From positions 12,439-76,438 of the forward strand of contig CAZIWL010000005.1 of the NCBI GenBank assembly GCA_964542755.1: a DNA stretch of 64,000 nucleotides. Reading direction: 5' to 3'. Below the pieces are notes generated by a model that was not told where the DNA came from, searched no databases, and saw only the letters and a list, made by a program, of their open reading frames with translations. Origin of the DNA: an uncultured Anaerolineales bacterium. GTDB lineage: Bacteria > Chloroflexota > Anaerolineae > B4-G1. Within the stretch, counting starts at the first letter, position 1, and the number at the start of each line of letters is the position of its first letter. This document shows positions 11,369 to 51,722 of this stretch, piece by piece. The translations under genes were made by a program, and so were the position numbers.

Positions 11369-11395
11369 GACGTGCCAACCGTGAGGGGTGGCAAT

Positions 11396-12385
11396 TTGGA
11401 GTATAGGGACTACTACGACATCCTGAATGTTGGCCGGGGCGCGAGCGAGAAGGAGATCAAGCAGTCCTTTCGCCGCCTGGCCCGCCGCTGGCACCCCGAC
11501 GTGAACCCCGACGACCCCCAAGCCGAAGAGAAGTTCAAAGAGATCAACGAGGCATACGAGGTACTGAGCGATCCAGAGAAGCGCTCCAAGTATGACCGGC
11601 TGGGCCATAGCTGGAAACAGTGGCAGCGGTCAGGTGGCGATCCGGGACAGTACGACTGGTCCCAGTGGTTCACCGGTGGACCGCGAGGAGCCCGCGTCCA
11701 CTGGAATGGCGACCTGGGCGATCTCTTCGGTGGCGCCGGTGGTGAGGCCTTCTCGGATTTCTTCGGCGCCATCTTTGGCGGGGGGACGGCCGGCCGCCGC
11801 CGATCCGCGGCTGACATCTTCGGTCAGCCGGTTCGCGGTCGGGCCTATGGCGCTGGGTCGCGCGGACGGGACGCGGAGACCAATGTCACTGTCACCCTTG
11901 AGGAAGCGTACCGTGGGACGAGCCGTGTCCTGGAGAGAGGCGGACGGCGCATACGGGTCACCATTCCCCCGGGTGTGCGTACCGGTTCCCGAGTGCGAGT
12001 CGCCGGCGAAGGGAACTTCGGCCATACCGGCGGGGATTCTGGTGACCTCTATCTGAGCATTGCCGTGGAACCGCATCCTGTTTTCGAGAGGGAGGGCGAC
12101 GATCTCCGCTGCGATGTGGCGGTGGATCTTTGCACGGCCGTGCTTGGAGGGCGGCTCCGGCTGCCCACGCTGAACGGCGACGTATCGTTGAGGATTCCCG
12201 CCGGGACCCAGGGTGGGCAGACCTTCAGGCTCCGGGGAAAAGGGATGCCCAATCCCCGACGCCCTGACGAGCGAGGGCATCTCTTGGCCACAACAGAGAT
12301 CGAGATTCCGCAGAAGCTGACTCCCCGTGAGAGAGAGTTGTTTGAGGAGTTGGCGAAGAGTAGAGGAAAGGAACGCCATGCATAG
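11396..12385 (+). CDS. DnaJ-class co-chaperone (J domain plus DnaJ C-terminal domains, CbpA-like, no zinc finger)
   Basis: [37 protein letters not shown] domain with the HPD motif. Gly-rich linker, then C-terminal DnaJ_C beta-sandwich. TTG start with GAGGGG RBS; the start codon is uncertain. Confidence 0.75.
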
Positions 12386-18207: not shown

Positions 18208-18618
18208 AGGGATCCTCCTGTTTCGACCCCGGTCGCTCAAGGTCCTGGGGTGAGCGGCTAGTATAGCATCTCCTGACGGCGCTAACAACCCACCACTTGC
18301 GCTCAACCACGGCGCGCGGGGGAGGCTCTCTCATATGCAAATCCAACACGATTCCTACGAAACTCCTACGAGGAATCCGTATAATCTTGACGAGGCGCAA
18401 GATGCGTCGATCCTGTGGCAGCGCACTATGGTGCAGGAAGAGCGTGGGCGTTTCGAATTGCCGTGGTCTCTCCATGTGAGGTGATCCAATGGAGCATCAT
18501 GCACGACGGGGGCGCTTTCTGGCAATCCCGTGCGAGGGGTGGACGCTCTCTGATCATTGGGTTTGAGCCATGTTAGGCCTATTTGGATAGTTGTCTTTAG
18601 AATCGATTGGTGAGTGAT

Positions 18619-21210
18619 ATGAATCTAAACAAGTTCACGCAGAAAGCACAAGAAGCTGTGATGGAGGCACAGTCGCTGGCGGGCAAGTACAGCCACAGCC
18701 AGATCGAACCCGGGCATCTCCTGCTGGCGCTTCTGCGGCAGGCGGACGGCATCGTCCCACAGGTCGTCCAGAAGCTCGAGGCGAATCCGGGGGAGATGGC
18801 CCTGTCCCTTGAGGGCGAACTGAAGAAGCGGCCGAGGATTCGTGGCGCGGCAGCCCAGGTGGGCATGTCGCGGCAGCTCGGACGTGTACTGGAAGAGGCC
18901 CAGGAGACGGCTCAACGCATGCGCGACGAGTACGCGAGCACGGAGCACCTGCTGCTGGCTCTGACCGGCACCCAGGGGGGTGATGCTGCGCGTTTCCTCT
19001 CAGCTCATGGCGTCACGGAGGACGCTGTTCTCAGGGCACTGACCGCCATCCGGGGCAACCAGCGTGTCACCAGTCAGAATCCCGAGGCGACGTACCAGGC
19101 CCTGGAGAAGTACGGTCGCGATCTAACGGAGCTGGCCCGTGATGGCAAGCTGGATCCTGTCATTGGGCGCGACGAGGAGATTCGCCGCGTGATGCGCATC
19201 CTGAACCGCCGTACCAAGAACAATCCCGTCTTGGTTGGCGAGGCAGGTGTGGGCAAGACAGCGATCGCCGAGGGCCTGGCCCAGCGCATCGCCCACGGCG
19301 ATGTTCCCGAGGGGCTGAAGAACAAGCGCATTGTCGAGCTCGATATGGGGGCTTTGGTCGCTGGCGCTAAGTTCCGAGGTGAGTTCGAGGAACGGCTCAA
19401 GGCGGTGCTCAAAGAGGTTACCGAAGCGGCCGGTCAGGTCATCCTGTTCATCGACGAGCTCCACACCGTTGTAGGGGCTGGCGCGGCGGAGGGTGCCGTC
19501 GACGCGGGCAACATGCTCAAGCCGAAGCTCGCACGCGGTGAGTTGCACGCCATTGGTGCGACGACCTTGAACGAGTACCGGAAGTACATTGAGAAGGATG
19601 CGGCCCTTGAGCGACGCTTCCAGCCCGTCTTTATTGCCGAGCCGGGGGTCGAGGATACCGTCAGCATACTCCGCGGGCTCAAGGAGCGGTATGAGGTCCA
19701 CCACGGCGTGCGCATCAAGGACTCGGCCTGCATCTCGGCGGCCACGCTTAGTGATCGGTACATCGCAGACCGTCAGCTCCCAGACAAGGCCATCGACCTC
19801 ATCGACGAGGCTGCCTCACGCCTGCGCATGGAGATTGACTCCAAGCCGTCCGAGCTAGATGAAGTGGATCGACAGATCATGCAGTTGGAGATTGAGCGCG
19901 AGGCCCTCAAGAAGGAGAGCGACACGGCCAGCCGTGACCGGCTCGAGGACCTGGAGAGAGAGCTGGCTGACCTGGAGGAGACGCGGAAGGCCCTGCGCGC
20001 GCAGTGGGAGCAGGAGAAGAGTGCCATCCAAGCGGTCCAGCAGACGAAGGAGCAGATGGATCGAGTCCGTCATCGTATCCAGGAGGCCCAACGGACGCAC
20101 GACTACGAACAGGCATCGGAACTCCAGTACGGTCGACTTTCGGAGCTGCAGCGGCAGCTTGAGGCTCAAGAGGAGCGGCTCAACGAGCTCCAAGAAGGTG
20201 GTGCTATGCTCAAGGAGGAGGTCGGCTCAGAGGAGATCGCCGAGGTCGTCTCTGAATGGACAAGCATCCCCGTCGCCAAGCTCCTTGAGGGAGAGCGAGA
20301 GCGTTTGCTCCGCATGGAGGAGGCTCTCCACCGCCAGGTTGTGGGACAGGAGGAGGCCGTCGAGGCCGTCTCAAACGCCGTGCGACGGGCCCGCGCCGGT
20401 CTGCAGGATCCCAACCGGCCCATCGGGACCTTCATCTTCCTCGGTCCAACGGGAGTCGGCAAGACCGAGCTGGCCAGGGCTCTGGCCCAATTTCTCTTCG
20501 ACACGGAAGAGGCCATGATTCGCATCGACATGAGCGAGTACCAGGAGCGGCATACTGTCTCCCGCTTGATCGGTGCCCCTCCCGGGTACGTAGGCTATGA
20601 GGAGGCCGGTCAGCTCACTGAGGCCGTTCGACGCCGTCCCTACAGCGTGGTCCTTTTTGACGAGATCGAGAAGGCCCACCCGGAGGTCTTCAACACCCTC
20701 CTCCAGCTGTTGGACGAGGGCCGTCTGACCGATGGGCAGGGGCGGACGGTGGACTTCCGGAACACGATCATCATCATGACGAGCAACGTCGGCAGCCGCT
20801 GGATCAAGGACAAGGGTGTCGATGAGGCGCGAGACAAGGTGATGGAGGAGCTCGATCGCATCTTCCGTCCCGAGTTCCTCAACCGCATCGACGAGATCAT
20901 TCTCTTCCGCAGCCTCACCAAGGAGGACTTGCGAAGGATCGTCGACATCCAGATGCGCCATCTGCGTCGTCTGCTCGACGAGCGGAAGATGGACTTGCAG
21001 ATGACGGATGAAGCACGGCGTCATCTGGCCGAGGTCGGCTACGATCCGGTCTACGGTGCCCGTCCACTCAAGCGCGTCATCCAGCGGCAGGTGCAGGATC
21101 CGCTGGCCCTGTCGCTCCTCCGGGGAGAGTTCGACGAGGGCGACACCGTACGGCTGGAGGCACCTAACGGGCGCATTACGTTCAAGAAGGCCGAGGCTGC
21201 TTCGGCTTGA
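18619..21210 (+). CDS. clpB: Chaperone ClpB (Hsp100 disaggregase)
   Basis: Two AAA+ modules with Walker A/B. Long coiled-coil middle domain (about 130 aa). Clp N domain. Confidence 0.9.
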
Positions 21211-21515: not shown

Positions 21516-24017
21516 ATGATGAGGTTAGACCGTTTCACTGAGCGGGCGCAGGCGGCGGCCCAGCGGGCCGTCCAGATCATGGGGCGCTATGGACACACGC
21601 AGGTGGACACGGAACATATCTTCCTGGCGCTCCTGGAGCAACCTCAAGGCGCCATCTCCGACCTGATGGAACAGCTCGGCGCCGATACCGAGCAGGTCGA
21701 GAAGAAGCTCGACGAGGCACTGCAGGACAGTGCCAAGGCCAACGTCTACGGCGGCGGGGGCATGGGGCAGGTATTCATCACCCCGCGCGTGAAGCGCGTG
21801 TTGGACCGCGCGAACGCCGAGGCGAATCGGCTCAATGATGACTATATCTCCACCGAGCACATCTTCTTGGCCATCGCGAGCGAGAGGGACACGCTGCCCG
21901 CCCGCATCCTTCGAGAGCAGGGCATCTCCAAGCAACGGATCTACGAGGCCATCAAGGAGCTGCGGGGTGGCAAGCGAGTCACCGATCGACGAGCTGAGAC
22001 CCACTATCGGGTTCTGGAGAAATACAGCCGAAACCTGACCCAGATGGCGCACGAGGGGAAGCTTGACCCCGTTATCGCCAGGGATGATGAGATCCTCCGT
22101 TTGATCCAGATCCTCTGCCGCCGCACTAAGAACAACCCGGTCCTTATCGGTGAACCCGGAGTGGGCAAGACTGCCATCGCCGAGGGTCTGGCCCAGAAGG
22201 TCGCCGAAGGGGATGTCCCCGAGATTCTGATGGGGCGGGAGGTTGCCCAGTTGGATCTAGCATCAATGGTGGCCGGGACTCACTTCCGCGGCGAGTTCGA
22301 GGAGCGGCTGAAAGCGACCATCGAGGAGATCCAGAGTTCTGAAGGAGATATCATCCTCTTCATCGATGAGCTTCACAACGTGGTGGGGGCTGGGGCCGGC
22401 ATGGGGGCGCTCGATGCCTCAAACATGATGAAACCAGCGCTGGCTCGCGGTGAACTCCAGTGTATCGGGGCGACCACGCTCGATGAATATCGTCAATACA
22501 TTGAGCAGGATGGTGCCCTGGAGCGGCGATTTGCCCCCATCTTCGTCGATGAGCCAACAGTCGAGAAGGCTGTGGTCATGCTCGAGGGGCTGCGGGACCG
22601 ATATGAGGCACACCACAAGGTTCACATATCGGATCAAGCGATTCAGGCGGCTGCTCACCTCTCGCACCGCTACGTCACGGACCGCCGCCTTCCTGATAAG
22701 GCTATCGACCTGATGGACGAGGCCGCGGCCAAACTGCGCGTTGCCCTCCACACCCTCCCTCCGGAGTTGAAGGAGATGCACATTGAGCTCCAGCGCCTCC
22801 AGACGGAGATCGACGCGGCCAGCAATATGGAGGATTACCAGCGGGCGGCCGAGTTGAAGACCGAGCGCATCAACCTTCAGGCTGAGTTCAACCTGCAGCG
22901 CGAGATATGGCAGCAGGAGAATCAGCTGGACGAGACCATTGAGGAGAAGGACATCGCGGAGGTCATAGCCAAGTGGACCGGCATTCCTGTGGCGCGCATG
23001 CTGGAGACGGAGTCGGACAAGCTGCTCCGGATGGAGGATGCGATCCACGAGCGCATTATCGGACAGGAGGAGGGCGTCGCCGCGGTCTCCGATGCCATCC
23101 GGCGCGCCCGGTCCGGGTTGAAGGATCCCAGCCGTCCTATCGGCAGCTTCATCTTCCTCGGCTCGTCGGGTGTGGGGAAGACAGAGCTGGCCAAGGCGCT
23201 GGCATGGTTCCTCTTCGACGACGAGGATGCCCTGGTTCGCATCGACATGAGTGAGTATCGGGAGCGGCACACTGTCTCGCGCCTCTTTGGTGCGCCTCCG
23301 GGATACATCGGTCACGAGCGCGGCGGCCAGTTGACCGAGGCGGTTCGCCGCCGACCTTATCGGGTTGTCCTCTTTGATGAGATCGAGAAGGCCCACCCGG
23401 ACGTGTGGAACGCGCTTCTTCAGATTCTGGACGAGGGGCGGCTCACTGATGGTCAGGGTCGCATCGTGAACTTCCGGAATACCGTCGTGATCATGACGTC
23501 CAACGTCGGGACCTCGTTTGCTCATGAGGGTGGCACGCTAGGCTTCATGCGCTCCGAGGAGGACGGGCAAGGTGGCACGGTGAATCAGGAGCGCATCAAG
23601 CGCGAGCTCAAGGACACCTTCCGACCGGAGTTCCTCAACCGCATCGACGAGGTCATCGTCTTCAACAACCTGACGGTGGAGGACATGGAGAGCATCGTCG
23701 ACCTTCAGATGGCTGAGGTATCGGATCGACTCTCCGACGTGGGTCTGCAGGTCCGGCTGACTGACTTGAGCCGACGGTGGCTGGCGCGGAAGGGTTTCGA
23801 TCCTCAGTTTGGAGCCCGACCTCTTCGCCGTGCTCTCCAGCGGCACGTGGAGAGCCCTCTCAGCGTCAAGCTCCTACGGGGGGACTTCGAGCGCGGAGAC
23901 ATCGTGGTCGTCGACGTGGCGGACGATGATCTCATCTTCCAGACCAGCACTGAGTGGACGGAGCTGAGCGAGAAGACCAGGGAGCCCGTCGCCGGAGAGG
24001 TGAGCGTCGAGTCGTAG
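21516..24017 (+). CDS. clpC: ClpC/ClpA-type AAA+ ATPase (Hsp100 with short linker)
   Basis: 833 aa. Two N-domain repeats, two AAA+ modules, a short UVR-like linker ([25 protein letters not shown]) instead of the long ClpB M-domain. Confidence 0.85.
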
Positions 24018-29323: not shown

Positions 29324-30343
29324 ATGGCCGGTCTCCAGGTGGGAGGTATGCCCCGCCATCAGGCTCTAAACGCCGTCGAGGTGGCCCTCGCTACACCACT
29401 GATCGTCACCCATCACCACGAAACCCCGTCCCTATCCCCCAGCCTCGTCGAGCTGCGGTACGATGCCACGCAGACGGTCGCCAATCTCGATGCTGCACCG
29501 GTTGACTGGCACGGCGTCGAAGTCTTCGCGGCTTACGTGCTGCGATGGGGATCGACGCAAATCCTTGTTCCTGTGGCCGTTTCCTTCTCTGAGGCATGCC
29601 TCTCCCGTCACGTTGAACGCATCGCAGAGGAGTACGACGGCCCACCGCAGGAACCGGCGGCGCTTCCCGCGGCGCTGGGCTTCGGGTCTCCTCGTCCGGG
29701 GTGCTGCTTGGATTTCGAAGCAACCCGTCTCCATCTGGCCCTGGCCTTGGTGTCGGCGTCCGCGCGGCGGGTCGACCTGGTGGTCGACGTGGAGGAGTCT
29801 CCGGAGGTCGAGCCAGACCTGCTCTTGCAGTTGCTGGAGGAGCGTCTCGATGACCATCCTGGTCTGATTCCCGGTGTCTTCATCAAGGACCTCCGGTCTG
29901 GTGAGGAGGTGACCCTCAACAGCGACCTAGCCTTCTCGGGTCTCAGCGTACTCAAGGTCGCCGTGTTGGAGGAGGTCTACTGGAACCTTGATCGTCCCCC
30001 GGACCCGGAGACGACGAAGCTGATCTCTGAGACCGTGACCGAGAGCGGCCATTCCACCGCGAACCTGCTTCTGAGGGATGCTATTGGCGACGGGGACGCG
30101 TACGAGGCGACCGAGAGACTGGCAGATTCGATGCGACGCTCTGGTTTGCTCAACACGTTGATGGGCGCCCCACATGACGAGAAGGACCCGGGGCGTGAGA
30201 TCGTGACCGACGCCGACGTGGTGGTAGCCGCCGCCATGATCGATCGGCTGGTTCACCACGCCGAGATCATCAGCTTGAAAGGTCCGAGTTACCGCCGCAA
30301 AGGGAAGGAGGGGTTTATGGACCCTGTGGCAAAGAACCGTTGA
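29324..30343 (+). pseudogene. Class-A beta-lactamase-like serine hydrolase gene, truncated and fused in-frame to an IS21 istB 3-prime remnant
   Basis: SxxK-like LSVLK and SDN-like ESGHSTANLLL motifs. The last 41 codons (VVVAAAMIDRLVHHAEIISLKGPSYRRKGKEG) match the IstB helper C-terminus. Confidence 0.45.
30218..30343 (+). mobile_element. IS21-family istB C-terminal fragment (insertion-sequence remnant)
   Basis: AAAMIDRLVHHAEIISLKGPSYR is the conserved IstB C-terminal signature. No istA and no intact element nearby. Confidence 0.5.
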
Positions 30344-30694
30344 TATTTCATCGTAGGGTGGTACACTTTTACTTCGTTGACGACACGCATCAAGGCAGGG
30401 GTGCTGGGCGGGACTCGGGAAGCCCACAAGCATGGGTGGACGCGCGACACCTACGCCGACGCTGCCCTTGTGTAGAGCCCCGGCAGTGATTGTGTGCTGG
30501 TGGTCTTCCTTCACCGCCCCGTCCGGTTGGAGTGGGACGAGGGCGCGCCTCTCATCGCCGACATCTCCACGGGGACCTACAACTACTTCAATCCCCAGCG
30601 ATGTGCTGCCGTCTCCATTGCACGTTCCCCCGTTTGCTTCTATAATTGAGTTCGATCACCAGGCTGCGAAACAGCCGCGCTTCGCTCGGTACCT

Positions 30695-32668
30695 ATGACA
30701 CCCACCGACCCGCTTGAGACACATAAGATCGAGGATATCCGGTCATCCTCCGTTGGAGCCGATGCGCGGGAGCCCACTGCGCTCGGCTCAAGTGAGGGCT
30801 CGAAGGTCGAGCGCCCCGTGGAGCAACCCTCCCGTATCGACGGGCGTCTACCACCGGGATTCCTCCTCCAGGATCGCTACCGCATCCTGTCGGTGCTGGC
30901 GATAGGAGGTATGAGCGCCGTCTACAAAGGGCAGGATCTCCGCTTCTCCAAAGTCAAGCGGGTCTGTGCCATCAAGGAGATGACCAGCAGCGCCACGGAC
31001 CCCGATGTCCGCCAGATGATTCTGCGCAACTTCGAGCGAGAGACGAACATCCTGGCCACCCTCAATCATCCCGGCATCGTTCAGGTCTACGACTGCTTCA
31101 CCGAGGGCGATCGAAGCTACCTGGTCCTCGAGTACGTGCCAGGGAAGGACCTGGAGGCGATGCTCGAGCAGACGCGAGGCTTCCTCTCCGAAGAGAAGGT
31201 GGTGAGCTGGGCCATTCAGATCTGTGAGGTGCTCAGCTACCTCCACAGCCAGGAGCCCCGCCCCATCGTCTTCCGGGATATCAAGCCCTCCAATGTGATG
31301 CTCGATGACTTTGGACGCGTCAAGCTCATCGACTTTGGCATCGCCAAGATGTTCCAGAGCGGCAAGAGGGGGACAATGATTGGCACGGAGGGATACTCAC
31401 CTCCGGAGCAGTACCGGGGGATGGCCGATCCGAGGGTCGACATCTATGCCTTGGGGGCGACGATTCATCACTTGGTGAGCAAACGGGACCCCCGTTTGGA
31501 GCCGCCCTTTTCTTTCCACCAGCGACCGATCCATGAGACCAATCCAAGTGTCTCTCGAGAGCTGCTGGAGGTAGTGCACCGGGCGCTTGAGTATGAAGCT
31601 AATGATCGCTACGGGTCTGCCGACGAAATGAAGCGGGCATTGACGAGTCTCCGTTCCGCTCGGGGCGGAATGGGCACGGATGCCTTCGGTGCTCCGGCTG
31701 TCGTCAGGGGCGAGATCACGCCCCAGTGGCGCTTCGCCCTTGAGGACGAGATCCGCTCCTCGCCAGCTGTCCATGGCGGCACGGTCTACGTTGGGGCGTA
31801 CGACCACAACCTCTATGCCCTAACAGCCGACACGGGCGAGTTCCTGTGGAAATATGCCACCGATGGCGGCATCGCTTCCTCACCTTGCGTCTATGAGGGC
31901 ATGGTCTTCGTCGGCTCCACGGATAAGGTGCTCTACGCCGTGGACGCCAGCGATGGGCGTATCCGCTGGACTTGCCCCACTGGGGGCAGGGTCTGGTCGT
32001 CCCCCCAGGCTGCCTTCCATCACGTTTTCTTCGGTTCCGATGACCGACACCTCTACGCGGTCAATGTGGAGTCGGGGCGCGTAGCCTGGCGGTTCGAAGC
32101 CGACGGGCAGGTGCGCTCGTCGCCTCATCTGGGCGACGAGGCGATCTATGTCGGCTGTGAGGCAGGTGTCGTCTACGCAGTGGATACCGGTGGCGAGATT
32201 CGCTGGCGCTTTCGGGCTCGCCGGGCCGTGACCTCCTCGCCTGCTGTGACTGACGAGATGGTCTACATAGGGGCGCAGGACCGATATGTGTACGGTCTTG
32301 ACGTCCGATCTGGATGGCTGGCCTGGCGCTACCGGACGGATGGCCCGGTGATCTCCTCACCGGCTGTGGGGAAGGGCATTGTCTTCGTGGGATCAGCGGA
32401 CAGCCATCTGTACGGGCTGGACGCCGAGACCGGTCGTCTGGTCTGGCGGTATGGCACCGACGGGCAGGTGACATCCTCACCGGCGTTGTCTGGAGGGCGG
32501 GTCTACTTTGGTTCCGTGGACGGTGGCGTCTATTGTGTCGAGGCCGAGACAGGCAATCTACTATGGCGGTACCAGACCGACGGCCCGGTGACCTCTTCCC
32601 CCGCTGCTACCGAGGAGAGGGTATACGTGGGATCCTGTGACCGGTACTTGTACGCACTGCCTGGATGA
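30695..32668 (+). CDS. Ser/Thr protein kinase with C-terminal PQQ-repeat beta-propeller
   Basis: Hanks kinase motifs (VYKG, AIKE, FRDIKPSN, DFG, SPPE). C-terminal repeated (V)Y(V/F)G(S)xD..LYA(L/V)D...G...WR(F/Y) PQQ-like blades, about 7 copies. Confidence 0.85.
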   Translation: MTPTDPLETHKIEDIRSSSVGADAREPTALGSSEGSKVERPVEQPSRIDGRLPPGFLLQDRYRILSVLAIGGMSAVYKGQDLRFSKVKRVCAIKEMTSSATDPDVRQMILRNFERETNILATLNHPGIVQVYDCFTEGDRSYLVLEYVPGKDLEAMLEQTRGFLSEEKVVSWAIQICEVLSYLHSQEPRPIVFRDIKPSNVMLDDFGRVKLIDFGIAKMFQSGKRGTMIGTEGYSPPEQYRGMADPRVDIYALGATIHHLVSKRDPRLEPPFSFHQRPIHETNPSVSRELLEVVHRALEYEANDRYGSADEMKRALTSLRSARGGMGTDAFGAPAVVRGEITPQWRFALEDEIRSSPAVHGGTVYVGAYDHNLYALTADTGEFLWKYATDGGIASSPCVYEGMVFVGSTDKVLYAVDASDGRIRWTCPTGGRVWSSPQAAFHHVFFGSDDRHLYAVNVESGRVAWRFEADGQVRSSPHLGDEAIYVGCEAGVVYAVDTGGEIRWRFRARRAVTSSPAVTDEMVYIGAQDRYVYGLDVRSGWLAWRYRTDGPVISSPAVGKGIVFVGSADSHLYGLDAETGRLVWRYGTDGQVTSSPALSGGRVYFGSVDGGVYCVEAETGNLLWRYQTDGPVTSSPAATEERVYVGSCDRYLYALPG

Positions 32669-32690
32669 GGAGGGACCCGAGAGAGGGGGC

Positions 32691-33551
32691 ATGCATTTTC
32701 TACGCAGACTGATTGGCCGTGAGAACCCCTCGGCACCGACCGAGATTCAGGATGGGTCGGGGTCGAGCAGCGAGCGCCCGCGGATGGATGTCGGATGGGT
32801 CACCGACGCGGGCAAGGTGCGCGACCACAACGAGGACGCTGCTCTTGTCATCACGGCAGCCCACGATGCGCGCCAGGCCCATCCTCCATTCGGCCTCCTA
32901 GTGCTTGCGGATGGTATGGGCGGACACCGGGCCGGGGAGGTCGCGAGCTCCCTGGCGGCTCGGGTTGCGGCTCACCATATCACGCGTCGCTCCTATTTGC
33001 CCTCCCTCCTCGGGCCCGAGCAAGATGCCCGGCGTCCGGCTCTGACGGAGGTCCTCATTGATGCCGTGCAAGCGGCTAACCAGACTGTGTCTGAGGAGGT
33101 GCCCGGCAGCGGCACCACGTTGACCTGTGCTCTCGTCTTGGAGACGCAGGCGTATGTTGCCCACGTAGGGGATAGCCGTGCCTACGTCATCACCGAGGAC
33201 GGGATGAAACAGATCACCCACGACCATTCGATCGTCGATCGACTCGTGGACACGGGGCAGTTGACGCCCGAAGAGGCGGCTGAGCACCCTCAGAAGAACG
33301 TCCTCTATCGGGCCATCGGGCAAGGCGGAGCGCTGGACGTGGATACCCACGTGCACAAGGTTGGAGCAGGTGACTATCTACTGTTGTGCAGTGACGGGCT
33401 GTGGGGGCTGGTCAGCGAGACAACCATGGTCGATCTAATCCGGGAAGCCCCATCTCTTCAAGAGGCGTGCCGCCAACTTGTTACCGCCGCGAACGACGCT
33501 GGAGGGAGCGACAACATCACGGCTATCCTCTGGCGCTCTCCGCTCGGTTAG
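32691..33551 (+). CDS. PP2C-family Ser/Thr protein phosphatase
   Basis: DAGKVRDHNED, LADGMGGH, AHVGDSRAY, CSDGL, GGSDNIT metal-binding motifs. Confidence 0.85.
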   Translation: MHFLRRLIGRENPSAPTEIQDGSGSSSERPRMDVGWVTDAGKVRDHNEDAALVITAAHDARQAHPPFGLLVLADGMGGHRAGEVASSLAARVAAHHITRRSYLPSLLGPEQDARRPALTEVLIDAVQAANQTVSEEVPGSGTTLTCALVLETQAYVAHVGDSRAYVITEDGMKQITHDHSIVDRLVDTGQLTPEEAAEHPQKNVLYRAIGQGGALDVDTHVHKVGAGDYLLLCSDGLWGLVSETTMVDLIREAPSLQEACRQLVTAANDAGGSDNITAILWRSPLG

Positions 33552-33566
33552 GACGTTGCCCATCTG

Positions 33567-35069
33567 ATGCCCACCGGGGTCCCTATGGACATTAATGTCA
33601 CCAAGGACTATTACAGCATCTTGGGTGTATCCCCTTTCTCCACCCAGGAGGAGATCAAACAGGCCTATCGGCAGCTGGCTCTCCGCTACCATCCTGACAG
33701 CCGTGAGGCCGACACGTCCACACGTCTCTTTCATCAAGTACACGAGGCCTACGCCGTGCTGGCCAATCCTGAGACCCGTCGCTCATACGACCGGCAGCGG
33801 GATGAGAAGCGGGCAGATGAGACCGCTCCCCTGATCCTTGATGTCGTGCAGAGCCAGGAGACTCTCAGCTCGAGGCATGACGAGCAGATACTCTACGCCC
33901 TGCTGGAGGTCCGTCCCGGAACCGTCTCCAGCCGTGAGCGCCTACCTCTTGACCTATCGATGGTGATCGACAAGAGCACCTCGATGAAGGGGGCTCGCCT
34001 TGCCAGCGTGAAGGCTGCAGCCCGGGAGATTCTCGATCAGCTCAATGATGACGACTTCCTGGCTATCGTTAGCTTCAACGACCGGGCTGACCTTCTGATA
34101 TCCGACCAGGTTGGGGTGAGCCGTGCCCGCGCCAAGAGAGCCATCAACGGCCTGCGCGCGGAGGGGGGAACGGAACTGCTAAGAGGACTCCGTATTGGTC
34201 TCGATGCTCTAAGCAGCTACCGGGGACACGATGTGGTGCGCCACCTGTTTCTTCTCACGGATGGGCGGACATACGGGGATGACGACGCATGTGTCGCGGC
34301 GGCAGCCGAAGCCGCCGACAAGGATATCGGCATCACCGCTATGGGCATCGGAGAGGACTGGAACGACGATCTCCTGGAGGAGATGGCGGCCCTCAGTGGT
34401 GGTACGTCGGCCTACGTGTCGTCGCCCGGGCAAGTGCGTGCCCTGTTGCACGGGATGATCCGCAAGCTCAGTTCGGTTTTCGCCACGGAGATGATCCTCA
34501 GTGTGCGGACGGCCCCGGGGGTATCAGTAGAGAGCATCTTCCAGACTTCACCCTCCCTGGAGCGTCTCCAGCTCTCCGAGGGTGTGACTCGGTTGGGACC
34601 GCTGGAGGTTGAGACGCCCAGGAGGATCCTCATCGAGATTGCCGTCGAGGCCAGGCCGCCGGGCGACCATCGTCTCCTCCAAGCCGACCTGTTCGGCGAT
34701 GTGCCGAAGCTAGAGAAGCGGAGCGAGAGGCTCCGGCGCGCCATCTGGTGTCGATTCACCGACGAGGGGATTGACCAGGAGGAGCAGCAGGTCCCTGAAG
34801 TCATCCTCAGATTGGTGAGCCGGATCACACTCTATCGTATGCAGGAGCAGGCATGGTCGGCTCTTGAGGAAGGCAACGTCGATCAGGCGACTCGTCGGTT
34901 GGAGGTGGTAGCGACCCGCCTCCTTGACATGGGTGAGGAGCGCTTGGCGCAAGCTGCTCTGCTTGAGGCCAAGCATATCGCCGAAAGGGGAGGCGCCACG
35001 GAACGAGGTCGCAAGGAGATCAAGTACGGCACCCGCCGTCTCAGTCTCAGGAGCGAGGCCTATGATTGA
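33567..35069 (+). CDS. J-domain / von Willebrand factor A (vWA) fusion protein
   Basis: N-terminal J domain (DYYSILGVSPFSTQEEIKQAYRQLALRYHPD). Central vWA with MIDAS (DKSTSM..S). C-terminal helical region. Confidence 0.75.
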   Translation: MPTGVPMDINVTKDYYSILGVSPFSTQEEIKQAYRQLALRYHPDSREADTSTRLFHQVHEAYAVLANPETRRSYDRQRDEKRADETAPLILDVVQSQETLSSRHDEQILYALLEVRPGTVSSRERLPLDLSMVIDKSTSMKGARLASVKAAAREILDQLNDDDFLAIVSFNDRADLLISDQVGVSRARAKRAINGLRAEGGTELLRGLRIGLDALSSYRGHDVVRHLFLLTDGRTYGDDDACVAAAAEAADKDIGITAMGIGEDWNDDLLEEMAALSGGTSAYVSSPGQVRALLHGMIRKLSSVFATEMILSVRTAPGVSVESIFQTSPSLERLQLSEGVTRLGPLEVETPRRILIEIAVEARPPGDHRLLQADLFGDVPKLEKRSERLRRAIWCRFTDEGIDQEEQQVPEVILRLVSRITLYRMQEQAWSALEEGNVDQATRRLEVVATRLLDMGEERLAQAALLEAKHIAERGGATERGRKEIKYGTRRLSLRSEAYD

Positions 35070-35577
35070 GTGTCCATCCTGCGGAAGGAAGCACCGCCCG
35101 GGAAGCCTTTTCTGCAGTGAATGCGGTGGGTATCTGCCGACCGCGGGGCGGCCCGGAACAGAACCAATCCCGGGGCGCGAGTTGCCCAACAGGCAGGCTC
35201 GAGCCTGGGGGCCCAGCACGAAGAGCGCCGGAGAGTCGGGGAGGACCGGCACGAAGCTGCAGATCAGGGTGGTCTCCAACGAGCGCGAGATTCAGTTGCC
35301 TCCGGGGGCGGATGTGCATGTGGGCAGGCTGGACGCCGCTCAGGACATCTTCCCCGACGTCGATCTAACCCCGGACGGTGGTTTGAAGGGCGGCGTATCG
35401 CGATGCCACTGCCGTATCTATGGGGAGGACGGCGACTACTACGTCGAGGACCTGGGAAGCGCGAACGGGACCTTTCTTAACGGGGAGCGGCTGACCCCCT
35501 ACCTACCTCACGTGCTCGGGGAGGGCGACCGGCTCCAGCTCGGCCGTGTGGAACTGGTGGTCACGGTCCTGGAGTAG
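35062..35577 (+). CDS. FHA-domain protein with N-terminal zinc ribbon
   Basis: CPSCGRKH...CSECG ribbon. FHA core (GR..DV.L....VSR.H......DG.YYVEDLGSANGTFLNG). ATGA overlap with the upstream stop. Confidence 0.8.
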   Translation: MIECPSCGRKHRPGSLFCSECGGYLPTAGRPGTEPIPGRELPNRQARAWGPSTKSAGESGRTGTKLQIRVVSNEREIQLPPGADVHVGRLDAAQDIFPDVDLTPDGGLKGGVSRCHCRIYGEDGDYYVEDLGSANGTFLNGERLTPYLPHVLGEGDRLQLGRVELVVTVLE

Positions 35578-35602
35578 GACCTCGTGGACTGGGAGGGAGA
35601 CC

Positions 35603-35845
35603 ATGGCCTACACCGTATTGGTACATATCTTGAACGAGGAATCCGTCGTGGGGGAGATCGAGCGCGTTCCGGAGCCTACGGACCAGGTCCTCATCATCCA
35701 CAACGTCCGTTATCGCGATGGCCGGGATGTCTCCTACGTCCTGCCGGAGACTGACACGGTCATCTACCCTTGGCAGCGTATTCACTGTGTCGAGATTCTG
35801 CCTAGCGGGGACGAGGAAGAGGTGGTCAGCTTCATCAGGGAGTGA
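35603..35845 (+). CDS. Small conserved-looking hypothetical protein (80 aa)
   Basis: Compact ORF between the FHA and response-regulator genes. No recognisable motif. Confidence 0.35.
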
Positions 35846-35862
35846 GCGGAGGGAGGGCGTCC

Positions 35863-36603
35863 ATGACCGATGGCCATGAAGGCTTGATCCTGGTCGTTGA
35901 CGATGAACCGCGTATGACGCGTTTCATTCGCATGAACCTGGAGTTGGAGGGGTATCACGTCATTGAGGCTCACGACGGAATTGAGGCGCTCGACAAGGTT
36001 CGAACCGAGCTGCCCGATCTGGTTATCCTCGACGTGATGATGCCCGAGTTGGATGGCTTCGAGACGCTGCGGATGCTGAGGGAGATATCGAGTGTGCCGG
36101 TCATCATGCTGACCGTCCGAGACGAGGAAGAGGACAAAGTCCGTGGCCTGGAGTTGGGCGCCGATGACTACGTCACCAAGCCTTTCAGCGCCCGCGAACT
36201 CGCCAGCCGCGTGAAGGCCGTACTCCGTCGGACGCAGGGGCCGGCCAGTCCTCAGGAGTCCATCGTGACCGTGGACGATCGGCTCAGCATCGACTTCAAC
36301 AAGCGCGAGGTCATCGTCGAGGGCGAGAGGATTCACCTCCGTCCCACGGAGTTCCGTCTCCTCTATCATCTAGTGCAGAACGCCGGCTGGGTCGTGCCCC
36401 ACGAGACACTCCTCTCCAAAGTTTGGGGCTACGAGTACGGGGAGGACGAGATCCAGAACTTGCGGCTCTACATCAGCTATCTAAGGAAGAAGATCGAGCC
36501 CGACCCTTCGGATCCTCAGTATATCTTCACCGAGATCGGGACCGGATACCGCTTCGTCGACTTCAAAGAGGAGGCCAGCGAGCGAGGAGCACATTCTGTC
36601 TAG
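35863..36603 (+). CDS. OmpR/PhoB-family response regulator (orphan, no adjacent kinase)
   Basis: Receiver domain (DDE, D55-like, T, K) plus winged-helix output. GGAGGGAGGG RBS. Confidence 0.85.
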
Positions 36604-37200
36604 GTCGCGCCCATGGTTCGGCTGGGGCTCACGGATTTCGGGTTTGCGATGACGTTGATCTGCACGGGGTGGATGACCGCGACGGTATACCGACGGGAGG
36701 CGAGTTGGTCGTAGAGGCGAGCCCATGATGATCGGAAGGCACCGGAGCGACCTGTACGGACTCACCAAGGGTTTCCCACCTCTCTATGAGTGACGCGACT
36801 CCAGAATGGTTTCTGAGAGTGGCCCTCGGAAACCCTACTCCGCCAGCCTTGCTCATCTGGGAGGAGAGCCTGGTTGTGGCAGCTGGCAATTTCGATGCCA
36901 ACGAAGGTCGTCAGTGCCTTCCAAAGGGCTGGTCACGCCCGATGACGCTCCTGCTCTCTTCCGCCTTCCGGGTTCCCCTACAATCCTGCAAGTGATACGT
37001 AGCTCATCCAAAAACTTCCTCGCTCGCAGTCGCCCGCGGTAGACGAGGTACCAGTCCCTTGCTTGCGTCTCGCCCCCAGAGAGCACCGCCCAGCACCTCC
37101 ACTCTCAGAAGCCAAGGTTCCCGCCGCGGCAGGAGAGGCTCGCCACGAGCATGGAAGGAGTCTTCTCGGTATGGGTGCAAGCAGCTGGTAGGACAATGAG

Positions 37201-37650
37201 GTGCGTGTCAGTCTGCACGCTGTCAGCAGCGAAAACTGGCGTGATGTGGCCGCTCTTCAGGTCACAGAAGTGCAGCGGGCCTTCGTCGCTGAGCCCAGCT
37301 ACTACCTGGCGCGCTGCTGTTATGGGAAGGATTAGCACCTGCTGGCAATCTACACCGACGCGCGTGTCATCGGCTTCATGATATGGGCTCTCGATCCGGC
37401 GGACGGCAGTTGCTGGCTGGGCGGGGTACTGATCGACCAGGCATGTCAGGGACAGGGCTACAGCAGAGAAGCAGTTCGAGCCGCGATCAGGATGCGATCG
37501 GAAGCAGAGGGATACCAGGACTTTGCGCTATCGTACAGTCCGTCTAACACAAGGGCGAAACATCTCTACGAGACGCTGGGCTTTGTCGAGACCGATGATT
37601 GGGAAGGCAATGAGATCGTGGCGCGTCTGTCGGTTGAGGGGTTGATCTGA
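37201..37650 (+). pseudogene. GNAT N-acetyltransferase with in-frame TAG at 37333-37335 (probable TGG to TAG nonsense)
   Basis: Single reading frame encodes WRDVAALQV..FVAEPSYYLARCCYGKD-TAG-HLLAIYTDARVIGFMIWALD...GQGYS..A..A...G. The stop sits where homologues have Trp. Confidence 0.5.
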
Positions 37651-38238
37651 TGCGGCGCACAACGGACATCTCGGTCACTCCGTCTGTGCTTGTGGACGAC
37701 AGACCGATCAGAAAGCCAGAGGAGACCAACGGGAGGACAGCCATAGCACCGAGTGTGACGATCGGACAATGGGCATCCTCCATCATCTGAGATTCGGACA
37801 TACCTGTACGCCAAGTCGTATGGCTGTTCCACCGACGGCTTTCTTGTTTTCACGATGACGTCGTGCCGCGCGTAGCGGACACCCAAGAAGGATACACGCG
37901 CCCTCGATTCCGGATAGGGTTTCTTATGTCGTCATCCCCGCGGGCGCGGCGGGGTGATCCCCACCCTCGCTGCCTCGTCACCGCTTCCTGGCCCTCCAGG
38001 TACTCTGACTGCTCTTCATCGTGCTCCGCAGGCTTTCCACTCAGTCTGTCCGCGAGTGGTCTCGCGCCGAGTGAAAGCCACGGCCGACAGGTTCCTTGCA
38101 GCGCCTTTCTTCTTATGCCTTTCCTATGGCCCTCTAATGCAAATCTAATGGACTTGTGTCATCATACAGTCGAGTCGGAATGGCTTGATCAAGATTTCTG
38201 GCTTGGTTGGCTTGGAATAGGTAACAGGAGGTGCAGAT

Positions 38239-38688
38239 ATGTCACAGTTAACACGTTGGGAGCCCTTCCGTGACCTAGTGAGTCTACGGGAGGCGATGGA
38301 TCGGCTCTTCGAGGAGAGCGTTGTGCGACCTCGATCTGGGGAGCTTTCCCCGCGGATGGTCGGGACGTTGGCAATCGACATGTGGGAGACCGATGACGAC
38401 ATCGTGGTCAAGACAGCGGTTCCGGGGGTCAATCCCGAGGATATCGATATCACCGTGACCGGCGACACATTGACCATCAAGGGCGAGACCAAGACCGAGG
38501 AAGAGACTGAGGAAGGTAACTACGTGTGTCGGGAGATGCGGTACGGCTCCTTCTCACGCTCCATCACGGTGCCAATGCCTGTGGAATCCGAGAAGGCGGA
38601 AGCGGAGTTTGAGGATGGGATGCTGACTCTCAAGCTGCCGAAGGCTGAGGAAGTGAAACCGAAGTCGATCAAGGTCAAGTCCAAGTAG
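38239..38688 (+). CDS. Hsp20 / alpha-crystallin small heat-shock protein
   Basis: WEPFRDL..L...MDRLF N-terminus, alpha-crystallin core, AEFEDGMLTLKLPK and C-terminal I-x-V motif. CAGGAGG RBS. Confidence 0.85.
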   Translation: MSQLTRWEPFRDLVSLREAMDRLFEESVVRPRSGELSPRMVGTLAIDMWETDDDIVVKTAVPGVNPEDIDITVTGDTLTIKGETKTEEETEEGNYVCREMRYGSFSRSITVPMPVESEKAEAEFEDGMLTLKLPKAEEVKPKSIKVKSK

Positions 38689-38729
38689 TTGACCATTGAA
38701 AATCATACGTGTTACTCGGAGGTGACAGC

Positions 38730-39173
38730 ATGACTATCATTCGCGGAAACCCTTGGCGTGAGGCACGAACCCTACGCGAGGCGATGGACCAGTTGTTTGA
38801 GGATAGCTTTGTGCGTCCCAGCGAGGGGCAAATGGAGCGCACGGAACGCCGTTTGCGGTTGCCGCTGGACGTATACACCACACCGGAGGAGATCGTCATC
38901 ATCGCGTCCCTCCCCGGGCTTACGCCGGATGAGGTCGATGTGACGATCGATGATGATCGTCTGATGATCCGCGGGGAGTTGCGCCCCCCCCTGCAGAATG
39001 TAGATTACCTGTTTCAGGAGCGCGCGTATGGGGCTTTCTCACGGACCCTCACGCTCAACGTACCAGTGGAGTCCGACGAGGCCGAGGCTGTCTTCGAGAA
39101 TGGTGTGCTGACACTCACGCTGCCGAAGGCCGAGGAGAGCAAGCCTAGGACGATCGAGGTCAAGCGCAAGTAG
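38730..39173 (+). CDS. Hsp20 / alpha-crystallin small heat-shock protein (tandem paralogue)
   Basis: Same architecture (AVFENGVLTLTLPK). GGAGGTGA RBS. Confidence 0.85.
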   Translation: MTIIRGNPWREARTLREAMDQLFEDSFVRPSEGQMERTERRLRLPLDVYTTPEEIVIIASLPGLTPDEVDVTIDDDRLMIRGELRPPLQNVDYLFQERAYGAFSRTLTLNVPVESDEAEAVFENGVLTLTLPKAEESKPRTIEVKRK

Positions 39174-39949: not shown

Positions 39950-40369
39950 CTACCGGGCTAGCTTGACCTCACTTGCCTCCGGGCCCTTATCCGACTCAGT
40001 CACGGAGAACGTCACTTTCACGCCTTCATCGAAGTCTCTCTCGTTCCCTTCAGCAATGGCGTTCTTGTGGAAGAAGATGTCCTCGCCGTTCCGCATGGTG
40101 ATGAAACCGTACCGCTTTCTCGGCTCATACCATTTAACCACTCCGGCCTGCTCGCCTTCCTCCAATGACTCTACCGACTCTACCGACTCTACCGACTCCA
40201 CCGACTCCACCGATTCCACCGACTCCACTGGCTGACCCTCTCGGCACTCCGGACAGAGAGAGGGCTCAACTTCCAACCCCATCTTTTCGAGCCGTCGTTG
40301 CTCCTCAACGGTGAAGACGTACTGCTTTTCGCACTTCTCGCATGTGGCCCACGTATCGCGGTGTGGCAC
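39950..40369 (-). CDS. Zinc-ribbon / (VES)n-repeat / cold-shock-domain protein
   Basis: CEKCEK...CPEC ribbon. VESVESVESVESVESVES linker. CspA-like GVVKWYEPRKRYGFITMRNGEDIFFH core. Confidence 0.75.
   Translation of the reverse strand: MPHRDTWATCEKCEKQYVFTVEEQRRLEKMGLEVEPSLCPECREGQPVESVESVESVESVESVESVESLEEGEQAGVVKWYEPRKRYGFITMRNGEDIFFHKNAIAEGNERDFDEGVKVTFSVTESDKGPEASEVKLAR
40167..40229. repeat. Seven tandem 9-bp units (GACTCYACC) in-frame within the CSD gene, encoding (VES)n
   Basis: gactctacc x3, gactccacc x2, gattccacc, gactccact. Confidence 0.85.
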
Positions 40370-50904: not shown

Positions 50905-51591
50905 ATGCAAGGACTGATTCTCGTCGTGGACGACCAACCGAAGATCGTCAAGCAGGCCCGTGACTATCTCGAGAAGGCGGGCTTTCAGGTCGTTGGGGCA
51001 GCCGATGGGCAGATGTCGCTGGATCTGGCACGCCGTGAGCGGCCCGATCTGATCGTACTCGATCTCAACCTGCCAGGTATAGACGGACTCGATGTCTGCC
51101 GGGCTCTTCGGCGGCAGTCCGATGTGCCGATCATCATGCTCACCGCGCGGGTTGGCGAAGCTGATAGGCTCATCGGATTGGAGCTTGGCGCCGACGACTA
51201 CATCACCAAGCCTTTTTCCCCTCGTGAGCTGGTCGCTCGGGTGCGGGCTGTGCTCCGCCGCGTCCGCGGCGGTGTCCACCGCCCCGGGGTTATCCGGGCT
51301 GGGGACTTGGAGATCGATATACCGGGTCACCGGGTCACTGTCGAGGGGGAGCCCTGTCACCTGACGCGTACCGAGTTTGATCTCCTGGAGGCGCTGGCTC
51401 AGAGTCCCGGTCAAGCCTTCACCAGGGAGCAGCTTCTCGATCGGCTCCACGGTGTGGCCTACGATGGCTATGATCGGAGCATCGATGCGCACATCAAGAA
51501 CCTGCGTCAGAAGATCGAGCCTGATCCATCGGAGCCTCGCTACATCGTCACCGTTTATGGCGTGGGCTACCGGTTTACCGATGAACTCTAA
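50905..51591 (+). CDS. OmpR-family response regulator
   Basis: Receiver domain plus winged-helix output. Confidence 0.85.
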   Translation: MQGLILVVDDQPKIVKQARDYLEKAGFQVVGAADGQMSLDLARRERPDLIVLDLNLPGIDGLDVCRALRRQSDVPIIMLTARVGEADRLIGLELGADDYITKPFSPRELVARVRAVLRRVRGGVHRPGVIRAGDLEIDIPGHRVTVEGEPCHLTRTEFDLLEALAQSPGQAFTREQLLDRLHGVAYDGYDRSIDAHIKNLRQKIEPDPSEPRYIVTVYGVGYRFTDEL

Positions 51592-51722
51592 GCCTGTGGC
51601 TGCGACGACTAGGCTCCCAGTCGCTTCCGGGTGGAGCGCGCACCGGGCTCGTCCACGACCCGGACCTGATCTCCACCACCTTTTTACACCAGATGTCGTG
51701 TTCAAGATGGAGGATTGACAGC

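Follow-up and report, generated by a model that had tools for sequence, protein, structure and literature searches.

The ArnA and ArnB proteins of the archaeon Sulfolobus acidocaldarius form a phospho-switch. The zinc ribbon of ArnA, a protein with an FHA domain, binds the β-sandwich and helical bundle of ArnB, a von Willebrand factor A (vWA) protein, loosely; the kinase ArnC phosphorylates threonines of the ArnB bundle, the FHA domain binds these to give a tight complex and PP2A reverses the reaction (PMC6509490, PMC12852372). In bacteria, a vWA protein, a PP2C phosphatase and a kinase make up the TerY-P modules, some of which defend against phage (PMC11090510), and the sole related entries in a survey of vWA systems (eLife 2020) are an actinobacterial GTPase-kinase-PP2C-vWA theme and a DnaJ-FNIII fusion. 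Chaperone genes are activated directly by a response regulator in cyanobacteria (cited in PMC9321951). Here a gene cluster is described from a stretch of 64,000 nt of an Anaerolineales contig (CAZIWL010000005.1, assembly GCA_964542755.1, positions 12,439-76,438; this whole stretch is called the window and all coordinates refer to it). It encodes, in order, a Ser/Thr kinase (STK), a PP2C phosphatase, a vWA protein carrying an N-terminal J domain (J-vWA), an FHA protein with a zinc ribbon, an 80-aa protein and an OmpR/PhoB-family response regulator. Our reading, to which we give even chances, is that the six genes form one operon and a cytoplasmic stress-signalling device, and that the OmpR-type regulator encoded at the 3' end activates the heat-shock regulon of Anaerolineae. 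Computation was used to establish how far the operon is conserved, which folds and motifs its products have, and what operator and genes define the regulon.

The first-pass annotation of this DNA had reported six co-directional, tightly spaced or overlapping genes that make up a Ser/Thr signalling module, and had proposed a synteny comparison. The map of open reading frames (ORFs) agrees with it, as all six lie closely packed on the + strand (30695-36603), and every domain it named was recovered in Pfam and NCBIfam scans. For the comparison, 76 loci were retrieved from one-genome-per-species contigs and their gene order was surveyed by tblastn. The order STK-PP2C-JvWA-FHA-s80-RR was found in essentially all of them, wherever contigs were long enough, down to 33% identity of the J-vWA protein; it is kept in about 70 species-level genomes from Anaerolineales, Thermoflexales and related lineages. 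The kinase gene was found in 69 of the related loci, the phosphatase gene in 71 and the 80-aa gene in 67, and the median intergenic gaps along the cluster are 55, 9, -8, 30 and 7 nt. The regulator is the best-conserved member (62 to 93% identity). Its gene comes directly after that for the 80-aa protein in about 60 of 67 loci, often overlapping it (median gap 7 nt). The cluster is vertically conserved across the class at high identity and lies in a stable housekeeping context. These comparisons support the conserved six-gene cluster as one operon, the even chances given above applying to the operon and heat-shock reading as a whole.

The J-vWA protein consists of a J domain (residues 14-82), a split β-sandwich (89-117 and 304-398), a vWA domain (128-302) and a helical bundle (411-490). 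In an AlphaFold2 (AF2) model (pLDDT 86.8, pTM 0.81) the vWA domain is inserted in the sandwich, which is made mainly by residues 304-398 and completed by two N-terminal strands, and the C-terminal bundle has four helices. The J domain is genuine, passing the Pfam threshold with ease (PF00226, 77.6 bits against a cut-off of 27.8; E = 7.9e-22), so that the fusion of J and vWA domains seen in the first-pass annotation stands. Its HPD motif (residues 42-44), which was to be followed in orthologues, is kept in 70 of 74, the exceptions being three J-less proteins and one with GPS in its place. The latter is an Anaerolineales orthologue (L027, 53-1594), whose J domain may no longer activate DnaK. The fusion had also been called unusual. 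It is real but not rare, being the majority form of the gene in the whole class: more than 800 homologues of nearly constant length (about 492-500 aa) all combine DnaJ and VWA. These are annotated solely as 'VWA domain-containing' or 'DnaJ domain-containing' and come from metagenome-assembled genomes (MAGs) of Anaerolineae/Chloroflexota. A second genome scan likewise restricted full-length matches to Anaerolineae, with other phyla giving J domain matches only; none of its 13 full-length matches had a cultured host, all being MAGs or Candidatus Anaerolineae, in a scan swamped by generic J domains.

The metal-binding MIDAS motif (DxSxS/T/D) of the vWA domain is intact in 74 of 74 orthologues. 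Three threonines of the bundle stand in a T-R-x-L context and are candidate phosphosites: T450 and T489 (each in 73 of 74 orthologues) and T442 (63 of 74). When the J-vWA model was compared with known structures by Foldseek, the best matches were 4fx5, a vWA protein from Catenulispora (9e-28), ArnB (8s05_A/B, E = 6e-24, TMt 0.75) and the ArnB paralogue 5a8j (9e-20), with Sec23/24 and ITIH ranking after 4FX5/ArnAB/5A8J. The family profile searched against PDB sequences also retrieved 4FX5 (2.9e-15) and ArnB (1.7e-12), the latter match spanning only the vWA part (125-296). A Pfam scan at E ≤ 0.01 gave no match to ArnB_C (IPR040929), and the likeness of the C-terminal bundle to that of ArnB, as modelled, is one of fold only.

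The FHA protein has the layout of ArnA, with an N-terminal CxxC-x10-CxxC zinc ribbon (C4, C7, C18 and C21), a linker and a C-terminal FHA domain (Pfam FHA, 8.4e-18). The zinc ribbon, already recognized in the first-pass annotation, is matched by Pfam Zn_ribbon and has all four cysteines. Among PDB sequences matched by this protein, ArnA chains (5a8i and 8s05_C) rank second and third (2.5e-6 and 3e-6), and the zinc-ribbon cysteines of ArnA (C21/C24/C35/C38) have identical spacing (PMC12852372). The pocket for phosphothreonine (pThr), formed by G88, R89, S113, R114, H116, S133 and N135, is kept in 74 of 74 orthologues. The genes for the FHA and J-vWA proteins are adjacent, overlapping by 8 nt here (median gap across 71 loci, -8 nt), and a natural J-vWA-FHA fusion (P0040) supports a physical interaction of the two proteins. 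In fold, partner architecture and adjacency, the vWA/FHA pair is a bacterial counterpart of the archaeal ArnB/ArnA phospho-switch.

The classical FHA ligand pattern is pT-x-x-L/I. Thr33 in the linker of the FHA protein is followed by x-x-L/I in all lineages and is conserved in 71 of 74 orthologues. A conserved pThr candidate in a protein's own linker recalls the auto-inhibition of GarA/OdhI, and such a role for Thr33 is only a lead.

The kinase contains a protein kinase domain (Pkinase, 64-308) and a PQQ/BamB-like propeller (344-655), with the catalytic D/K/N, DFG and VAIK lysine conserved among orthologues. Its top NCBIfam match is AfsK, at 240.7 bits against a cut-off of 1300, so the kinase shares only its architecture with AfsK. 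The phosphatase passes the cut-off for NF033484 (Stp1/IreP; 238.5 bits against 230). The propeller had been described as being of an extracytoplasmic type, which did not hold, since this kinase has no transmembrane segment or signal peptide. No membrane-compatible hydrophobic segment was found in any of the six products (maximum 19-aa Kyte-Doolittle mean < 1.6, likewise in the 69 kinase orthologues), indicating that all six proteins, propeller included, are cytoplasmic.

The regulator has a receiver domain (PF00072, 5.3e-32) and an OmpR-type DNA-binding domain (PF00486, 5.3e-23). Its nearest named families in NCBIfam are RpaB, WalR/YycF and MtrA, and all equivalog scores lie under their cut-offs (RpaB 236/330, YycF (WalR) 215/340, MtrA 204/300, PhoB 201/296). 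All canonical phospho-acceptor residues of the receiver (D20, D21, D64, T91 and K113) are conserved in 61 orthologues. A WalR-type Thr101 phospho-site was considered and rejected, as the equivalent position is Ala and is not conserved. No histidine kinase is adjacent or linked to the regulator here or in any related locus examined. The sole histidine kinase in the 64 kb (HAMP-HisKA-HATPase, 51693-52904, +) is paired with its own OmpR-type regulator (50905-51591, +), and the earlier description of the regulator as lacking a histidine kinase is thus borne out: within the window it is an orphan. Control by Ser/Thr phosphorylation or FHA binding, suggested at the same time, is plausible.

What the regulator might control is suggested by the genes beside it. 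Hsp20 genes follow the regulator in at least 15 related loci, and two do so in the window (Table 1). Alignment of hsp20 promoter regions, one from the window and the others from 13 relatives, revealed four direct repeats in register, with 11-bp spacing and the consensus cTTTCTAATGc, followed by an extended -10-like box and no -35 box. In the window this array lies 8 nt 5' of an extended -10 element, TGT-CATCAT (38157-38165). A weaker array of four 11-bp repeats precedes clpB, 12 kb 5' of the cluster, and is followed after 8 nt by TATAAT (18380-18385). A four-repeat position weight matrix (PWM) run over the 64 kb found exactly these two arrays, with scores of 48.9 (hsp20) and 22.3 (clpB), the maximum in 50 shuffles of the window being 10.1. 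Both lie directly 5' of the -10 boxes of chaperone genes.

Over 972 kb of related loci, strong sites were almost all located just 3' of the regulator gene, and the genes behind them encode Hsp20, DnaK (L038, L040 and L048) or a Zn-metallopeptidase (L039 and L041). A degenerate four-repeat pattern was then used to scan about 185,000 species genomes and matched 80 loci, around half of which are from Anaerolineae, Thermoflexales or Chloroflexota, the rest being low-GC genomes or microsatellites. The genes 3' of the arrays in Anaerolineae encode Hsp20 (at least 15), DnaK, CbpA-type DnaJ, GrpE, Lon, an HtrA-like protease and sigma-70. Many of these loci have no copy of the cluster, indicating a dispersed regulon. 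As a control, the 600 nt 5' of clpB were scored in 80 genomes: four other Anaerolineae gave 19 to 37, four more Chloroflexota 6 to 10 and 59 genomes of other phyla ≤ 2.5. It is therefore well supported that the four-fold TCTAATG array marks a chaperone/protease regulon across Anaerolineae.

The TCTAAT hexamer-N5 repeat is one base off TGTWAH-N5-TGTWAH, the consensus for WalR/VicR, and TCTAAT half-sites occur among the VicR sites mapped by footprinting (PMC4168254). The regulator of the cluster is probably the activator that binds the arrays. It is the best candidate because adjacency, the WalR/PhoB-type operator together with the WalR/RpaB kinship of the protein, and the presence of the arrays at chaperone genes all point to it. 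In the pho box of PhoB, four repeats abut the -10 box, and as the Anaerolineae array has the same layout, activation rather than repression is predicted. In four loci of Rhodothermota/Bacteroidota (L089, L095, L107 and L113), 11-bp-phased TCTAAT arrays also stand beside genes for OmpR-type regulators, which are 35 to 39% identical; related regulators of other phyla may use the same TCTAAT half-site.

Table 1. Genes, repeat arrays and putative promoter discussed in the text (window coordinates)
Feature	Position	Strand	Evidence or remark
Promoter-like site TTGATA-16-TACACT with TG	30340-30367	+	About 330 nt 5' of kinase gene; consensus scan only
Ser/Thr kinase (STK), 657 aa	30695-32668	+	Pkinase and PQQ/BamB-like propeller
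PP2C Ser/Thr phosphatase, Stp1/IreP family	32691-33551	+	Pfam PP2C, NCBIfam NF033484
J-vWA protein, 500 aa	33567-35069	+	Pfam DnaJ and VWA
Zn-ribbon-FHA protein, 171 aa	35062-35577	+	Pfam Zn_ribbon and FHA; 8-nt overlap with J-vWA gene
Conserved 80-aa ORF	35603-35845	+	No family match in Pfam/NCBIfam
OmpR/PhoB-family response regulator	35842-36603	+	Response_reg and Trans_reg_C; 4-nt overlap with 80-aa ORF
Operator 5' of hsp20: TCTTCTTATGC CTTTCCTATGG CCCTCTAATGC AAATCTAATGG	38108-38151	+	Repeats exactly 11 bp apart
Two Hsp20/alpha-crystallin genes, predicted targets	38239-38688, 38709-39173	+	Pfam HSP20 1.4e-23, 8.1e-20
Weaker 4 x 11-bp array 5' of clpB: CTCTCATATGC AAATCCAACAC GATTCCTACGA AACTCCTACGA	18328-18371	+	
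ClpB disaggregase, predicted regulon member	18619-21210	+	Pfam Clp_N, AAA, AAA_2, ClpB_D2-small; 12 kb 5' of cluster

A mechanism can be proposed from these components, in which we infer what the kinase phosphorylates, that the regulator binds the array and that DnaK acts by titration. By analogy with ArnAB, the propeller kinase would phosphorylate the T-R-x-L threonines of the J-vWA bundle and probably also Thr33 in the linker of the FHA protein, and the PP2C would strip the phosphates from both. The zinc ribbon may serve as a loose tether between the J-vWA and FHA proteins, with binding of pThr by the FHA domain as the tight lock. The J domain on the vWA scaffold would bring ATP-bound DnaK to the complex, and free DnaK recruited in this way may keep the pathway off, for instance if it holds or remodels either the regulator or the complex with the kinase. 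Unfolded proteins would titrate DnaK away, whereupon the phospho-switch would change state and the regulator would be released or activated. It would then bind the four 11-bp-phased TCTAATG repeats in place of a -35 box and turn on hsp20, clpB, dnaK, dnaJ, grpE, lon and htrA, the new DnaK, DnaJ and GrpE closing a negative feedback loop. Since dnaK, dnaJ and grpE carry the operator, the partner of the J domain is itself a member of the regulon, and the availability of DnaK could feed back on the switch by titration. The full route, in which free DnaK is read by a J-bearing ArnB-like scaffold and the signal passes through a Ser/Thr/FHA loose-to-tight switch, and perhaps the Sm-like protein discussed below, to an OmpR activator on the four TCTAATG repeats, would be undescribed in any organism; we put it forward tentatively, as possible but doubtful.

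Several observations weigh against this model. Assignment of the operator to the regulator is based on adjacency, family type and co-distribution, and there are other OmpR-type regulators in any genome, including one more in the window. An array lies within 350 nt of the regulator stop codon in only 14 of 58 loci, and in the window the regulator and the hsp20 operator are kept apart by an additional 1.5 kb of DNA. Autoregulation was considered and rejected, as the operator is absent from the 350 nt 5' of the kinase gene in 59 loci (best score 3.6). The fully canonical receiver means that an unlinked histidine kinase may be the true input. In two J-containing loci (L200 and L201) the sixth place is taken by a CpXC protein instead of the regulator. 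The downstream partner of ArnAB in archaea is still unknown (PMC6509490, PMC12852372), and the model accounts neither for what the 80-aa protein does nor for what the propeller senses.

In the strongest rival, an unlikely one in our estimation, two units merely lie side by side. The regulator would be driven by an unlinked histidine kinase or acetyl phosphate, the other five genes would form an ArnAB-like switch with a different output and the J domain would only fold or recycle the vWA complex. Retention of all phospho-acceptor residues in the receiver, the lack of an operator 5' of the operon and the existence of J-less clusters and of one J-containing lineage without the regulator all suit such an arrangement. 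It is harder to reconcile with the position of the regulator after the 80-aa gene in about 60 of 67 loci, across orders, a linkage tighter than that to hsp20, or with the lack of a linked histidine kinase in any locus examined.

The variant clusters bear on the same question. A minority clade of Anaerolineae lacks the J domain, and all six J-less loci examined read kinase-PP2C-vWA-FHA-81aa with no OmpR regulator after. This gene content suggests that the ancestral core had five genes and that the J domain and the regulator are later additions, and retention of the 80-aa gene in the J-less, regulator-less variants makes it part of that core. Because L200 and L201 keep the J domain without the regulator, the two are not strictly coupled; strict co-variation was accordingly rejected and is retained only as a trend. 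In regulator-less variants the sixth gene encodes a CpXC-domain protein (L199, 7441-9588; L200, 12477-13691; L066, 6932-9121). In L199, and apparently L066, there is a gene for an FHA-domain protein nearby on the opposite strand, and in L199 this protein forms a fusion with an OmpR-type DNA-binding domain, hinting that the module has repeatedly been partnered with winged-helix outputs.

A role in cell-envelope growth or division, with the cluster resembling PknB/PstP/FhaA/FhaB or AfsK-DivIVA and the regulator being of WalR/MtrA type, is quite improbable. The AfsK-like architecture of the kinase, the presence of WalR and MtrA among the best named relatives of the regulator, the resemblance of the operator to WalR half-sites and the gene for a β-lactamase-2-like membrane protein found 5' of the kinase gene in 18 close relatives might suggest it. 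However, the genes identified as carrying the array encode chaperones and proteases, with neither autolysins nor cell-wall enzymes among them, the cluster has no rodA, pbpA, PASTA domain or membrane anchor, and the AfsK, WalR and MtrA equivalog cut-offs are missed by wide margins. Furthermore, the gene 5' of the kinase gene is conserved in close relatives only and is truncated by an insertion sequence (IS) remnant here.

The 80-aa ORF, noted previously as uncharacterized, is a real conserved gene with 347 homologues, all of 79 to 81 aa and without a Pfam family. An exhaustive profile search of 1.84 billion representatives gave about 140 clusters, almost all of them stand-alone, and no informative fusions. 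The AF2 model (pLDDT 84) has six strands and no N-terminal helix, and Foldseek matched it to many LSm/Sm chains, weakly (E = 0.01-0.3, TM score 0.5 to 0.6, around 0.55), the best being the LSm domain of Edc3. The protein is thus predicted from its model to be an Sm/LSm-like β-barrel, with a predicted acidic, flexible tail that ends in F-x-R-E. It is conceivable, as pure speculation, that this tail is a ligand of the MIDAS. Given the predicted fold, and the retention of the gene even where the J domain and the regulator are missing, the 80-aa protein might be the real output, an RNA-binding protein of Hfq/LSm-like type that controls stress mRNAs post-transcriptionally, the regulator being an accessory. 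This is very improbable, as the fold match is weak (E ≥ 0.01, TM score about 0.55) and the N-terminal helix is absent, and LSm folds, of which that of Edc3 is the best match, are used to bind proteins as well.

A conflict or anti-phage system of the TerY-P triad or vWA-ternary type is scarcely credible and already largely refuted, since beyond the shared signature of vWA protein, PP2C and Ser/Thr kinase and the match of the kinase domain to PADLOC kinase models, the J-vWA, FHA and 80-aa proteins have no PADLOC match (the only matches being generic kinase/PP2C ones), the kinase carries a propeller and not a Zn-ribbon/OB fold, the vWA protein is a 500-aa ArnB-like one with β-sandwich and helical bundle, no effector domain is present and conservation is vertical and class-wide, unlike that of patchy, mobile defence islands.

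Some details of the cluster and its surroundings deserve mention. For the PP2C gene, the ATG start at 32691 is favoured over the listed GTG at 32637 because the median length of orthologues is 287 aa. The promoter-like site 5' of the kinase gene is weak evidence, one site being found where 2.3 are expected in shuffled sequence, and an Rfam scan of the region revealed no RNA thermometer or other RNA family. The gene 5' of the kinase gene (29324-30343, +) is truncated in the window, and the 32 C-terminal residues of its product match the end of IS21 IstB, an apparent IS remnant; in relatives it encodes a β-lactamase-2-like membrane protein of 467 to 476 aa (L014 and L202). At the other end, the regulator gene is followed in 12 loci of more distant lineages by a gene for a small Ras-like GTPase (for example, L041 6370-6885 and L052 9612-9980), with a roadblock/LC7 gene near it in seven loci. 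This neighbour recalls the GTPase link of the archaeal Arn network and of actinobacterial kinase-PP2C-vWA themes.

The extra DNA between the regulator and the hsp20 operator (36604-38107, about 1.5 kb) is mostly non-coding, with a GNAT-like fragment at 37378-37650; in close relatives the operator lies about 60 to 170 nt past the regulator stop codon. Beyond the Hsp20 pair, an ORF on the opposite strand (39950-40369, -) encodes a treble-clef zinc finger and a cold-shock domain and is conserved beside the pair in relatives. Within it a 9-bp tandem repeat (40160-40228, 6.9 copies) encodes (VES)n. A gene for a Ser/Thr kinase fused to an FGE-sulfatase domain (16003-18306, -) is divergent from clpB, the clpB array being 22 nt from the start of this ORF. 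The window also contains genes for a CbpA-type DnaJ (11372-12385, +) and a ClpC-like AAA+ protein (21516-24017, +), neither of which has a detectable repeat array 5' of it.

Unrelated to the cluster, Rfam PYLIS_3 matched above its gathering score at 6392-6491 (+), inside an ORF for an MttB-family protein (5414-6877; Pfam MTTB, 6.6e-123). PYLIS_3 is the pyrrolysine insertion element of mttB. As there is no in-frame stop in the ORF, the match probably reflects coding-sequence similarity in a non-Pyl MttB homologue.

Full-text literature searches retrieved nothing that describes the cluster, a signalling role for a J-vWA protein or the way in which Chloroflexi regulate heat shock. The individual parts are all of known kinds, and the novelty lies in how they are combined, in the homology to ArnAB within bacteria, in the family of the 80-aa protein and in the operator with its regulon. 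Anaerolineae are a major and mostly uncultured class, abundant in sludge, sediments and hot springs; regulation of the heat-shock response in Chloroflexota is apparently undescribed, and the four-fold TCTAATG operator provides a concrete, testable regulon for the class. ArnA and ArnB have been studied only in Sulfolobus; a bacterial version that is predicted to be coupled both to Hsp70 and to a DNA-binding regulator would be a tractable one in which to look for the targets of such switches. If the model of DnaK titration, J-vWA/FHA switch and OmpR-type activator is true, the J domain on a signalling scaffold would make Hsp70 a signalling input, beyond its role as a folding machine, the eukaryotic Hsf1-Hsp70-J-protein titration circuit would have an analogue in bacteria and an ArnAB-type module would have its first defined transcriptional output. 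Even with the titration model wrong, the six-gene operon, the 80-aa family and the operator stand as annotation.

Comparison with known systems shows what each component shares with its relatives. At promoters of PhoB/WalR type the direct repeats have the same 11-bp period, are in tandem and abut the -10 box, replacing the -35 box. The Anaerolineae regulon differs in consisting of chaperones and proteases, and its putative regulator is without a kinase partner and last in a Ser/Thr-signalling operon. AfsK of Streptomyces has the same combination of kinase domain and PQQ repeats, with no transmembrane segment, and its partners differ. AfsK signals to AfsR, a transcription factor with an OmpR-like DNA-binding domain.

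The TerY-P triad has the same co-encoded vWA protein, PP2C and Hanks-type kinase, and a zinc ribbon is present in both systems. In TerY-P, however, the vWA protein is short and TerY-like and the kinase is fused C-terminally to the Zn-ribbon/OB fold, whereas in Anaerolineae the zinc ribbon is on the separate FHA protein. The Anaerolineae cluster is neither mobile nor patchy, and no Ter or restriction genes are linked to it.

If the proposed model is right, its logic would be that of sigma32-DnaK/DnaJ in E. coli, HspR-DnaK in Streptomyces and Hsf1-Hsp70-Sis1 in yeast, an analogy for which no homology is claimed. In such titration circuits the availability of Hsp70 feeds back on the transcription factor of Hsp70, and a J protein targets Hsp70 to the regulatory complex. 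The cyanobacterial Hik34/Hik2-Rre1 system, a two-component module of the heat-shock response, is likewise compared by analogy only. None of these four has a vWA/FHA phospho-switch, a Ser/Thr kinase-phosphatase pair or an OmpR-type activator.

A further comparison is with ArnA/ArnB, the module that represses motility in S. acidocaldarius, with its kinases ArnC/ArnD and phosphatase PP2A. Both systems have adjacent genes for a Zn-ribbon-linker-FHA protein and a vWA protein, and ArnB and J-vWA alike possess a split β-sandwich, a threonine-rich C-terminal bundle and an intact MIDAS. A Hanks-type kinase and a Ser/Thr phosphatase are common to both, with all components cytoplasmic. In contrast to ArnAB, that system is bacterial, its vWA protein carries an N-terminal J domain and does not match the ArnB_C model of Pfam/InterPro, its phosphatase is PP2C instead of PP2A and its kinase bears a PQQ-type propeller in place of OB/TPR. 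The genes for kinase and phosphatase lie inside the operon, to which a predicted Sm-like protein of 80 aa and an OmpR-type regulator are added, and the context is proteostasis, not archaellum expression.

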